24,737 bases of DNA, from the IMG/VR virus record IMGVR_UViG_2718218399_000013, one strand, 5' to 3'. The notes below the pieces were generated by a model that was not told the DNA's origin, did not search any database, and saw nothing but the letters and a program-made list of their open reading frames with translations. Origin of the DNA: a virus (taxonomy: Duplodnaviria > Heunggongvirae > Uroviricota > Caudoviricetes). Positions 19,986-22,146 of this stretch are shown here, one piece after another. Numbering within the stretch: position 1 is the first letter of the stretch; each line of letters opens with the position of its first letter. The position numbers and the translations under genes are program-made.

Positions 19986-20279
19986 TCAGAACTCCATCTG
20001 GATTTGTTCAGAACGCTCGGTTGCCGCCGGGCGTTTTTTATTGGTGAGAATCGCAGCAACTTGTCGCGCCAATCGAGCCATGTCGTCGTCAACGACCCCC
20101 CATTCAAGAACAGCAAGCAGCATTGAGAACTTTGGAATCCAGTCTCTCTTCCACCTGCTGATCTGCGACTTATCAACTCCCACAGCTTCCGCTGTCTTCT
20201 CAGTTCCAAGCATTGCGATTTTGTTAAGCAACGCACTCTCGATTCGTAGAGCCTCGTTGCGTTTGTTTGCACGAACCAT
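19986..20279 (-). CDS. cII: lambda-type CII transcriptional activator, 97 aa
   Basis: MVRANKRNEALRIESALLNKIAMLGTEKTAEAVGVDKSQISRWKRDWIPKFSMLLAVLEWGVVDDDMARLARQVAAILTNKKRPAATERSEQIQMEF matches lambda CII as recalled. Confidence 0.9.
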   Translation of the reverse strand: MVRANKRNEALRIESALLNKIAMLGTEKTAEAVGVDKSQISRWKRDWIPKFSMLLAVLEWGVVDDDMARLARQVAAILTNKKRPAATERSEQIQMEF

Positions 20280-20358
20280 ATGTAAGTATTTCCTTAGATA
20301 ACAATTGATTGAATGTATGCAAATAAATGCATACACCATAGGTGTGGTTTAATTGGAT

Positions 20359-20390
20359 GCCCTTTTTCAGGGCTGGAATGTGTAAGAGCG
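20359..20390 (-). promoter_or_regulatory. nutR (boxA and boxB) between cro and cII
   Basis: Minus strand reads cgctcttaca ... gccctgaaaaagggc (boxB hairpin). Confidence 0.7.
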
Positions 20391-20397
20391 GGGTTAT

Positions 20398-20598
20398 TTA
20401 TGCTGTTGTTTTTTTGTTACTCGGGAAGGGCTTTACCTCTTCCGCATAAACGCTTCCATCAGCGTTTATAGTTAAAAAAATCTTTCGGCCTGCATGAATG
20501 GCCTTGTTGATCGCGCTTTGATATACGCCGAGATCTTTAGCTGTCTTGGTTTGCCCAAAGCGCATTGCATAATCTTTCAGGGTTATGCGTTGTTCCAT
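20398..20598 (-). CDS. cro: lambda-type Cro repressor, 66 aa
   Basis: [66 protein letters not shown] matches lambda Cro as recalled. Confidence 0.95.
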
Positions 20599-20624
20599 AC
20601 AACCTCCTTAGTACATGCAACCAT

Positions 20625-20688
20625 TATCACCGCCAGAGGTAAAGTAGTCAACACGCGCGGTGTTAGATATTTATCCCTTGCGGTGATA
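20625..20688. promoter_or_regulatory. OR1-OR2-OR3 operators with divergent PR (towards cro) and PRM (towards cI)
   Basis: 17-bp sites tatcaccgccagaggta (20625-20641), caacacgcgcggtgtta (20649-20665), tatcccttgcggtgata (20672-20688); PR -35 and -10 on the minus strand; cI ATG at 20699 fits a leaderless PRM transcript. Confidence 0.85.
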
Positions 20689-20698
20689 GATTTAACGT

Positions 20699-21412
20699 AT
20701 GAGCGCAAAAAAGAAACCATTAACACAAGAGCAGCTTGAGGACGCACGTCGCCTTAAAGCTATTTATGAAAAAAAGAAAAATGAACTTGGCTTATCCCAG
20801 GAATCTGTCGCAGACAAGATGGGGATGGGGCAGTCAGGCGTTGGTGCTTTATTTAATGGCATCAATGCATTAAATGCTTATAACGCCGCATTGCTTGCAA
20901 AAATTCTCAACGTTAGCGTTGAAGAATTTAGCCCTTCAATCGCCAGAGAAATCTACGAGATGTATGAAGCGGTTAGTATGCAGCCGTCACTTAGAAGTGA
21001 GTATGAGTACCCTGTTTTTTCTCATGTTCAGGCCGGGATGTTCTCGCCTGAGCTTAGAACCTTTACCAAAGGCGATGCGGAGAAATGGGTAAGCACAACC
21101 AAAAAAGCCAGTGGCTCTGCATTCTGGCTTGAGGTTGAAGGTAATTCCATGACCGCACCAACAGGATCCAAGCCCAGCTTTCCTGACGGGATGTTAATTC
21201 TGGTTGACCCTGAGCAGGCTGTTGAGCCAGGCGATTTCTGTATAGCCAGACTTGGTGGTGATGAGTTTACCTTCAAGAAACTGATCAGGGATAGCGGTCA
21301 GGTGTTTCTACAGCCACTAAACCCACAATACCCAATGATCCCATGCAATGAGAGTTGTTCCGTTGTGGGGAAAGTTATCGCTAGTCAGTGGCCTGAAGAG
21401 ACGTTTGGGTGA
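20699..21412 (+). CDS. cI: lambda-type CI repressor, 237 aa, near-identical to lambda cI
   Basis: [52 protein letters not shown] ... with the LexA-like C-terminal domain; a few substitutions relative to lambda CI as I recall it. Confidence 0.95.
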
Positions 21413-21539
21413 TAGGAAGTAAGTTTTATGTTGACGGCACAGTCAACTTGGCATAGATTAATTAAACCAAGCCCAGCCCCGTTCGCAGACAATTGTTAAT
21501 ATCTGCATAACGGCTCTGGGCTATTTTTTTGGGACTCTT

Positions 21540-21929
21540 ATGAAGAAAGCAGCAATTTTAATTGATGCGGGTTTTTTCATGCAGCGTGTTCATGCTACGC
21601 ATCGTAAACACTTCGCCGAGCATGAACTGACTGCGCAATGCATAATGAAAGTAATATGGTCAATGGTTCTTTCCCATCTTAATGGAAAACGTCAATCACA
21701 AGAACGTAGGGAACCGCTTGAGCTTTATAGAATTTACTTCTATGACTGTCCACCACTCGACATTCAAACACGCCTTCCACTTCCTGAGCCTGGCAATAAG
21801 ACGCCTGGTCGCAAGAATTTCAAACTCGAAAAATCATATATTCTGAGAACGGAGCTGCATGAAGAGTTAAGAAAAACTCGAAAAACACCAATTGTATTTA
21901 TTTTAAAATTAATAGGTGCAACTCACTAA
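21540..21929 (+). CDS. hypothetical protein, 129 aa, at the position occupied by rexA/rexB in lambda
   Basis: ORF with ATG start between the cI stop and OL/PL, same strand as cI; no resemblance to RexA or RexB as recalled; basic C-terminus. Confidence 0.5.
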   Translation: MKKAAILIDAGFFMQRVHATHRKHFAEHELTAQCIMKVIWSMVLSHLNGKRQSQERREPLELYRIYFYDCPPLDIQTRLPLPEPGNKTPGRKNFKLEKSYILRTELHEELRKTRKTPIVFILKLIGATH

Positions 21930-22010
21930 ACAACGCAATTCTGATCTCTCGATCACCTCCCAAGCCACACAACCCTGCAAAAAATAAATCTATATAAAAA
22001 ACATACAGAT

Positions 22011-22073
22011 AACCATCTGCGGTGATAAATTACCTCTGGCGGTGTTGACACAAATACCACTAGCGGTGATACT
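22011..22073 (+). promoter_or_regulatory. OL3-OL2-OL1 operators with PL promoter
   Basis: aaccatctgcggtgata, tacctctggcggtgttg, taccactagcggtgata; -35 ttgaca (22045-22050) and -10 gatact (22068-22073); near-identical to lambda PL/OL with single-base differences. Confidence 0.85.
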
Positions 22074-22112
22074 AAGCACATCAGCAGGACGCACTAACCA
22101 CCATGAAGGTGA

Positions 22113-22146
22113 TGCTCTTAAAAATTAAGCCCTGAAGAAGGGCAGC
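22113..22146 (+). promoter_or_regulatory. nutL (boxA and boxB)
   Basis: gctcttaaaaattaa followed by gccctgaagaagggc hairpin downstream of PL. Confidence 0.7.

Follow-up and report, generated by a model that had tools for sequence, protein, structure and literature searches.

Defective lambda lysogens made in the laboratory as N- O- P- derivatives are classically described as an immune/anti-immune two-state system. Closest to the locus analyzed here is the defective lambdoid prophage Sp1 of O157:H7 strain Sakai (CP-933H in EDL933), for which an intact repressor and antirepressor and SOS-inducible transcription are already known from the literature. In Table 1 of Asadulghani 2009, Sp1 is scored + for repressor and antirepressor and D for integrase and replication, and neither circularisation, replication nor packaging of Sp1 is reported there (PMC2669165). 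We analyzed a DNA stretch of 24,737 nucleotides (the window) and conclude that its immunity region is very probably the imm-lambda module of this known prophage, repressed by CI, derepressed by the SOS response and retained because the remnant is recent.

A lambda immunity module in the thrW prophage of O157:H7

Many O157:H7 chromosomes match it at 100% beside thrW-proA. Several O157:H7 genomes match positions 19700-22400 at 100%, and across 18371-24737 (6.4 kb) position 22033 is the sole difference between EDL933 and the window. The element corresponds to Sp1 and CP-933H in its thrW site, truncated integrase, cI/cro/cII genes, frameshifted O, tail-fibre remnants and pin. The attachment site is the tRNA-Thr gene thrW (23297..23369, minus strand), which lies beside proA and is convergent with PL. 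Att repeats are found on both sides: a direct repeat of 47-52 nt links 23288-23339 to 13007..13058, the left att repeat of Sp1, which duplicates the 3' end of thrW and forms the border with the adjoining P4-like Sp2. The integrase persists as a fragment without its N-terminus (22359..23279, plus strand; RefSeq annotation and Pfam Phage_integrase). An Rfam search returned no family within the immunity region, its matches elsewhere being tRNA-Thr and the P4-type C4 and isrK RNAs. Compared with Sp1/CP-933H generally, the window falls into a small 86-24 / CDC#03-98 group, which has 22033C in OL2 and is free of the IS629 copy seen at 21886/7 in many strains; the CDC#03-98 assembly is indel-rich, and its 'frameshifted' flags are taken cautiously.

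A sequence-only reading of the window had proposed a genuine lambda-immunity module within a gutted prophage, with full-length cI, cro and cII, recognisable OR1-3, OL1-3, PR, PRM, PL, nutL and nutR, and one base different from lambda in each of OR2 (20649-20665), OL1 and OL2. Base-by-base alignment to lambda (NC_001416) bears this out in every part, down to the coordinates of OR2. The identity is 97% across 2.4 kb, a match far beyond chance, and the flanking N, O, rexAB and lytic functions are lost or broken. The repressor gene cI (20699..21412, plus strand; lambda alignment and Pfam) has a leaderless start at PRM +1 and encodes 237 amino acids, with the HTH_3 and Peptidase_S24 domains of a lambda-type repressor. 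CI shares 233 of its 237 residues (98%) with lambda, and the four substitutions (T3A, K71N, R129K and D139G in ORF numbering) all recur in the wild phage mEp332, whose record stems from work on phages that have the immunity specificity of lambda. CI retains the Ala-Gly cleavage site as well as its Ser/Lys catalytic residues, and the alignment to lambda revealed no disabling mutation in cI or PRM. All fetched O157 genomes that still have cI carry the same CI accession (WP_001274756.1), and the protein is that of the complete phage ev099. Divergent from cI lies cro (20398..20598, minus strand; 66 amino acids), identical to lambda in nucleotides and protein, and cII (19986..20279, minus strand; 97 amino acids) likewise encodes a protein identical to lambda CII. 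The window has zero base differences from lambda 38285-38460, which includes the cII start and within which we take PRE to lie; on this placement, the CII activator is found together with its promoter, as in an imm-lambda module. A terminator hairpin (20010..20037, plus strand; terminator scan), in a stretch without difference from lambda, sits where lambda has the terminator of the oop antisense RNA.

All six 17-bp operators are present at lambda spacing in the tripartite OR and OL arrangement, three of them with one substitution each. OR1 (20625..20641), OR3 (20672..20688, overlapping PRM) and OL3 (22011..22027) are identical to lambda. In the lambda alignment, OR2 (20649..20665; TAACACCGCGCGTGTTG) has C at its centre (20657) where lambda has T (37982), and changes are also found in OL2 (22031..22047; TACCTCTGGCGGTGTTG) at position 3 (22033, T>C) and in OL1 (22055..22071; TACCACTAGCGGTGATA) at 22062 (G>A). 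The hexamers of PR, PL and PRM are unchanged from lambda. By consensus scan and alignment, PR (20623..20651, minus strand) consists of TTGACT, a 17-bp spacer and GATAAT with a predicted start at 20616, and PL (22045..22073, plus strand) of TTGACA, a 17-bp spacer and GATACT with a predicted start at 22080. Further changes from lambda are found at 20644 (PR -28, in the spacer), 22051 (PL -29), 22074 (PL -6) and 22113 (the first base of the nutL boxA, C>T); these had escaped the sequence-only reading, as had the N truncation, the O frameshift and the replacement of rexAB by a cut NYN gene. The boxB elements of nutR (20358..20374, minus strand; lambda 38265-38281) and nutL (22128..22144, plus strand) are both identical to lambda and vestigial, that of nutR because N is truncated. 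OL and OR are 1.38 kb apart, compared with 2.36 kb in lambda.

The operator variants, which according to the sequence-only reading could slightly alter the affinity of the repressor, differ in their distribution. Every O157 genome examined carries the OR2-centre allele, apart from two Argentine strains with a third allele (20657T), and neither the OR2-centre nor the PR -28 allele was found in any of 50,697 phage records. The OL1 variant is a natural polymorphism common to the functional phages ev099 and SfI, and ev099 also has the PL -29 and -6 variants. OL2 22033C is a rare private allele, matched exactly by no more than 6 complete genomes, and the base at 22033 is that of lambda in EDL933 as well as in the 16 further O157 genomes that cover this site.

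Outside the core module, a perfect tandem duplication of 23 bp among the ori iterons (19506-19561) shifts the frame of O (19031..19953, minus strand), for which Pfam Phage_rep_O matches the N-terminal ORF only. The frameshift was confirmed directly in the window, and the duplication is absent from O157 strain 272, phage ev099 and lambda. Fragments of P (18723..19034, minus strand; RefSeq annotation of identical O157 sequence) are joined to tail-fibre remnants. The N remnant (22301..22414, plus strand) runs through 20 N codons into 17 unrelated ones and then a stop codon, with homology to lambda ending at 22361, and is fused out of frame to the integrase fragment. Of the antitermination system expected in an imm-lambda module, the boxB sites are thus intact and N itself is cut past codon 20, a loss that affects lytic development and not immunity. 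In the rexAB position, a truncated NYN-domain gene (21540..21929, plus strand) encodes 129 amino acids, compared with 285 amino acids and a Pfam NYN domain in ev099; a 577-bp deletion has its junction at 21886/21887, and the same junction holds IS629 in other strains. We found no kil-like gene downstream of the immunity module.

Expression, proposed mechanism and retention

Expression of the module can be followed in strain EDL933, whose OL2 carries the base of lambda, and not the window allele, at 22033 and in which cro is unannotated. According to supplementary file 3 of a strand-specific RNA-seq study, the repressor gene is indeed transcribed in all 11 conditions, with an RPKM for cI (Z0309) of 552 in LB and of 164-2646 over ten conditions (PMC4048457). 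In the same file, both operons, PR and PL, stay silent until an SOS-inducing antibiotic raises them 23- to >100-fold: between LB and trimethoprim-sulfamethoxazole, RPKM values increase from 8 to 465 for cII, from 6 to 297 and from 1 to 108 for the O' fragments, from 6 to 162 for P', from 5 to 92 for the tail-fibre remnant Z0314 and from 21 to 487 for int' (Z0307) (PMC4048457). Given that cI is expressed while PR and PL are silent and then SOS-induced, the switch works in EDL933.

In the mechanism that we propose, CI made from PRM would occupy OR1/OR2 and OL1/OL2 and thereby hold off both PR (cro-cII-O'-P'-tail-fibre remnants) and PL (N'-int'), presumably with autoregulation via OR3 and OL-OR looping across 1.4 kb. 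SOS induction would trigger CI self-cleavage and derepress PR and PL. With a truncated N, a frameshifted O and the remaining functions deleted, transcription would then be the sole output. A CI/Cro two-state behaviour like that of N- O- P- lysogens may occur. The host cell should resist incoming phages of lambda immunity, and immunity of the host to lambda itself is plausible. Our literature search returned no report of lambda immunity or operator variation for Sp1/CP-933H. The O-antigen may block lambda adsorption, which would make immunity moot in nature.

The sequence-only reading had called the module preserved, implying selection, and in this respect it is not upheld. The cI gene is 100% identical in nucleotides to that of the intact phage ev099, and there has thus been no time for it to decay. 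The useless cro and cII genes are equally intact, and control stretches are invariant across carriers, which led us to reject the equation of intact with selected. The module is also dispensable, since O157 strain 7636 now does entirely without cI, cro and cII and has kept OL/PL. The existence of this cI-less O157:H7 strain likewise argues against an addiction-type retention, in which the repressor would silence a lethal gene. A recent origin of the remnant, rather than any demonstrated selection, best accounts for the retention.

Single-base variation at PR/OR and PL/OL among O157 genomes

Mutations within O157 are concentrated in PR/OR and PL/OL, an observation that a simple view of the module as a recent neutral relic does not predict. 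In a wider table of 19 O157 genomes, whose strains were picked for mismatched OR or OL probes, 136 bp made up of PR/OR and PL/OL contain 10 of the 13 SNP sites in 6.4 kb. Among 7 strains picked blind to OL, 3 of 5 sites lie within 70 bp (P=1.3e-5). Nearly all carriers show 100.0% identity over two control stretches (1191 and 1081 bp). Position 20645 (PR -29) fails the four-gamete test against both 22662 and 22073 and has therefore mutated repeatedly. A parallel T>C change at -37 is found in PR of TW14588 and in PL of Balcarce. Conserved hexamer bases of PL are destroyed, as expected of clear PL-down changes, at -33 in F6667 (TTGACA>TTAACA) and at -7 in a clade (GATACT>GATACC), the latter change being present also in the cI-less strain 7636. 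Other changes affect half-site positions 5 and 6 of OL1, OL2 and OR2.

For this cluster we tentatively suggest, as a serious possibility, that in the young O157:H7 clone the bases of PR/OR and PL/OL are by far the fastest-changing of the locus and that the host actively silences or retunes a switch left without its phage. A possible driver would be the burden of antisense transcription from PL into thrW-proBA, or of a Cro state locked after SOS. If confirmed, the cluster would provide natural single-base variants of lambda PR, PL, OR2, OL1 and OL2 against a background that is otherwise invariant, and would inform the question of how strong promoters that remain from decaying prophages are neutralised by their hosts; it would amount to an evolution experiment, run in nature, on the genetic switch that is understood best.

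Somewhat more doubtful is a broader alternative to retention through recency, in which the switch is domesticated and under ongoing selection, the host keeping and retuning CI, PR and PL through adaptive operator and promoter substitutions. The benefit could be immunity, the silencing of a strong PL antisense into thrW-proBA, or SOS-timed expression of the downstream tail-fibre/pin cassette on behalf of other resident phages. The clustering in both strain sets next to near-invariant control stretches, the recurrence at 20645, the parallel -37 changes, the PL hexamer losses and the presence of the PL -7 change in the cI-less strain 7636 all point in this direction, although the strains of the wider table were chosen by OR/OL probe mismatch. 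The directions of the changes are, however, mixed: some should weaken CI binding and thus raise PL or PR, whereas others should weaken PL. A further point in favour comes from supplementary file 3 of the EDL933 study, in which proB falls from 45 to 1 RPKM and proA from 40 to 1 under PL derepression, a fall that might also reflect a general response to the antibiotic in a shallow library (PMC4048457).

It is unlikely that the cluster is devoid of functional meaning and reflects a mutational hot spot in protein-bound or quasi-palindromic DNA, or a technical artefact such as assembly error. All but one of the 11 changes are transitions, imperfect palindromes surround the affected sites, and a hot spot would produce the recurrence seen at 20645. 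Yet OR1, OR3 and OL3, equally palindromic and CI-bound, contain no SNPs. The alleles recur in assemblies from different laboratories and platforms and are mostly coherent with the phylogeny, as seen for 20657T in the two Argentine strains and for 22073C inside the 22662A group, and we thus judge assembly error unlikely. Gene conversion from a second copy was rejected as a source, because each genome has a single copy and hence no donor. Finally, it is highly improbable that the operator variants, or the loss of N and rexAB together with the shorter OL-OR distance, have left the module inert, as repression in lambda needs neither N nor rex and the values tabulated for EDL933, with cI high and PR and PL silent but strongly induced by SOS, contradict it.

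Comparison with known systems

We compared the module, best read as a recent remnant, to described lambdoid systems. It resembles the lambda immunity region in gene order, in its identical Cro and CII, in a CI that is 98% identical and in OR1, OR3, OL3 and the promoter hexamers. It differs from lambda by the single-base changes in OR2, OL1, OL2 and the PR and PL spacers, by an NYN-gene stump in place of rexAB, and by a truncated N, a frameshifted O and the loss of all lytic genes. Wild lambda-immunity phages, for which Degnan et al. 2007 is the key comparison, were compared through the GenBank records of that study. In ev099, mEp332, CL707, HK244, HK542, HK544 and SfI, it is normal for other genes to stand in place of rexAB. 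Unlike the window, these phages have full N, O and P and are without the OR2-centre and PR -28 alleles. In ev099 (NC_049953), cI and the start of the NYN gene are base-for-base those of window positions 20658-21885. Retention of a repressor in cryptic prophages is a familiar theme, and the point made by the sequence-only reading matters little as it was stated. RacR in Rac and DicA in Qin are likewise repressors kept in degraded prophages, where they hold off divergent promoters. In contrast to these, our module has no toxic downstream gene, and an addiction of the RacR/DicA type is excluded by the O157 strain without cI. In effect, the element shares its genotype with the N- O- P- defective lambda lysogens, being cI+ and cro+ with no N, replication or killing functions, with the difference that the present one is natural.

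Identity of the element and its damage

Many E. coli O157:H7 chromosomes match a 2.7-kb region of the window at 100% identity, adjoining thrW and proA, and the remnant (~10.2 kb) is bounded by directly repeated copies of the thrW 3' end (13007-13058 and 23288-23339). The element is prophage Sp1 of Sakai, equivalent to CP-933H of EDL933, and the P4-like element upstream is Sp2/CP-933I. Over 18371-24737, the window differs from EDL933 by one base (22033), and its source strain falls within the small 86-24/CDC#03-98 group. Sp1 has been tabulated as positive for repressor and antirepressor and defective in integrase and replication, with excision, replication and packaging all absent (Asadulghani et al. 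2009, PMC2669165). The sequence-only reading, which had noted an intact lambda immunity module in a gutted prophage, was correct in what it observed, which is of an ordinary kind and was known before.

A few large events account for the damage: deletions, a 23-bp duplication and, in many strains, IS629 inserted at 21886/7. N is cut to 20 codons and joined to an integrase fragment. A perfect 23-bp tandem duplication of an ori iteron (19506-19561) puts O out of frame. This duplication is not present in O157 strain 272 (where O is intact), phage ev099 or lambda, and thus arose within O157:H7; part of the Sp1 damage dates from inside O157. The position of rexAB is taken by a NYN-domain gene, which a 577-bp deletion has shortened from 285 to 129 aa. 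Exactly at the deletion junction (21886-21887), many other O157 strains have IS629, inserted one way round or the other, and the NYN gene is longer in DEC4E and F6667 than in the window, which suggests a lineage history of IS629 insertion, adjacent deletion and later loss of the IS.

The tail-fibre segment beside pinE (~16850-18370) is inverted between EDL933 and the window, and the Pin-type invertible cassette thus still flips in the remnant. An intact GIY-YIG protein (15329-16153, + strand) has a match at E=2e-140 to the PD-T4-3 anti-phage defence family and may be a reason for carriage of the remnant. Sp2 contains an apparently fragmented Lamassu-type defence system (8389-11665, - strand), with LmuA in two ORFs, LmuC intact and LmuB in three ORFs, as well as a C4 antisense RNA and an isrK Hfq-binding RNA (4902-4989 and 5058-5135, both - strand), both above Rfam gathering scores.

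The immunity module and its expression

Base-by-base alignment to lambda (NC_001416) yielded two collinear blocks, oriented opposite to the conventional lambda map: lambda 39615-37223 corresponds to window 19001-21416 (97.4% identity), and lambda 35771-35300 to 21887-22361 (92%). The alignment bears out the full-length cII (19986-20279, - strand), cro (20398-20598, - strand) and cI (20699-21412, + strand) and the recognisable promoters and operators of the sequence-only reading, with OR1 at 20625-20641, OR2 at 20649-20665, OR3 at 20672-20688, OL3 at 22011-22027, OL2 at 22031-22047 and OL1 at 22055-22071. Cro and CII are identical to their lambda counterparts; CI has four substitutions (T3A, K71N, R129K and D139G) and retains its HTH and S24 domains, cleavage site and catalytic residues. 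The one-base differences from lambda claimed for OR2, OL1 and OL2 map exactly to 20657 (the OR2 centre), 22062 and 22033. OR1, OR3, OL3, every promoter hexamer and both boxB sites are the same as in lambda, and PR and PL were also recovered independently by a consensus scan. Overlooked in that reading were changes at 20644 (PR -28), 22051 (PL -29), 22074 (PL -6) and in nutL boxA (first base), together with the damage to N, O and rexAB.

The OL1 change is common to phages ev099 and SfI, and the PL -29 and -6 changes are also found in ev099, the latter in three more wild phages; in functional lambda-immunity phages, these three variants are common-or-garden polymorphism, ordinary in kind. The OR2-centre and PR -28 changes occur in none of nine comparison phages, and a 60-bp probe across both had zero matches among 50,697 phage records. 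The same probe matched 208 complete E. coli genomes (145 matches exact, 64 with 1-2 mismatches), which all appear to be O157. The OL2 change is rarer: only 6 complete genomes match a 75-bp OL probe exactly, and most O157 strains, EDL933 included, have the lambda base.

Strand-specific RNA-seq of EDL933 is available for eleven conditions (Landstorfer et al. 2014, PMC4048457, supplementary file 3), from which we compared RPKM between LB and treatment with the SOS inducer trimethoprim-sulfamethoxazole. Expression of cI (Z0309), proposed as a check in the sequence-only reading, is evident at 552 in LB and 228 with antibiotic, and spans 164-2646 over ten of the eleven conditions. On the PR side, cII rose from 8 to 465, O' fragments 1 and 2 from 6 to 297 and from 1 to 108, P' from 6 to 162, and the tail-fibre remnant Z0314 from 5 to 92; on the PL side, int' (Z0307) rose from 21 to 487. 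All of these were near background unless antibiotic was given. Such a pattern marks a CI-repressed, RecA-inducible switch that works; cI and PRM are thus functional, and PR and PL can be both repressed and induced. From this we infer immunity of the host to superinfecting lambda-type phages. In the same sample as the 23-fold rise of PL-driven int', proB and proA were ~40-fold down (PMC4048457).

Variable sites in the control regions of O157 genomes

Comparison of window 18371-24737 (6.4 kb) with 19 O157 genomes (loci L002, L004 and L012-L028) revealed 13 single-base variable sites, ten of them, unexpectedly, inside 136 bp of PR/OR and PL/OL (20623-20688 and 22011-22080). The other three lie in cII, in int' and, as a singleton, in proA; there is hardly any variation in cI, cro, cII or the pseudogenes. 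The PR sites are -28 (20644), -29 (20645, recurrent), -37 (20653, OR2 half-site position 5) and -41 (20657, three alleles). Those at PL are -47 (22033), -38 and -37 (22042 and 22043, OL2 half-site positions 6 and 5), -33 (22047, TTGACA to TTAACA), -14 (22066, OL1 half-site position 6) and -7 (22073, GATACT to GATACC), with -33 and -7 destroying PL hexamer bases. OR1, OR3 and OL3 have no variable sites among the 19 genomes. The overall binomial value of 5e-15 is inflated, the sample being partly picked for probe mismatches; in seven strains chosen blind to OL, three of five sites fell in the 70-bp OL/PL stretch (P=1.3e-5), and the flanking 2.3 kb was essentially invariant in unbiased control searches. 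Site 20645 fails the four-gamete test with both 22662 and 22073 and has thus changed repeatedly, and an identical T>C at -37 is found in PR of one strain and PL of another. We found no description of this cluster in the literature.

Selection could be crippling PL, which fires into thrW-proBA, convergent with thrW and antisense to proA and proB; the tL terminators are deleted (22080-24737). The fall of proB from 45 to 1 and of proA from 40 to 1 RPKM when PL is induced (PMC4048457) is consistent with this, but might reflect a general effect of the drug. Retuning of the CI/Cro circuit could be another target of selection. The directions of the changes are mixed. The cluster may come from selection or from a local mutational hot spot. 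Assembly error is unlikely, as the same alleles turn up in data from different laboratories and for the most part track clades, and gene conversion has no donor copy. The cluster deserves a proper population-scale test.

Retention of the module and comparison with lambda

The sequence-only reading had called the module preserved, with a flavour of selection that is unsupported. The complete phage ev099 has the same nucleotide sequence as the window across cI and the first 347 bp of the NYN gene, and cro and cII, though without a role in the remnant, are as intact as cI. Almost all carriers show 100.0% identity over stretches of 1191 bp (cI and NYN stump) and 1081 bp (cro-cII-O'). Together with the identity to ev099, this invariance indicates too little time for point decay, and the intactness of the module does not require selection. 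In strain 7636 (L028, locus 2361-4652), an IS629-associated deletion took cI, cro, cII, O' and P' and left OL/PL beside the IS; cI is thus dispensable, and its loss rules out a RacR/DicA-type addiction module. This strain also has the T>C at PL -7 and the change at OL2 position 6.

The Sp1/CP-933H copy is a member of the lambda-immunity modules and works alike, the sole defining feature missing from it being N antitermination, which immunity does not require.
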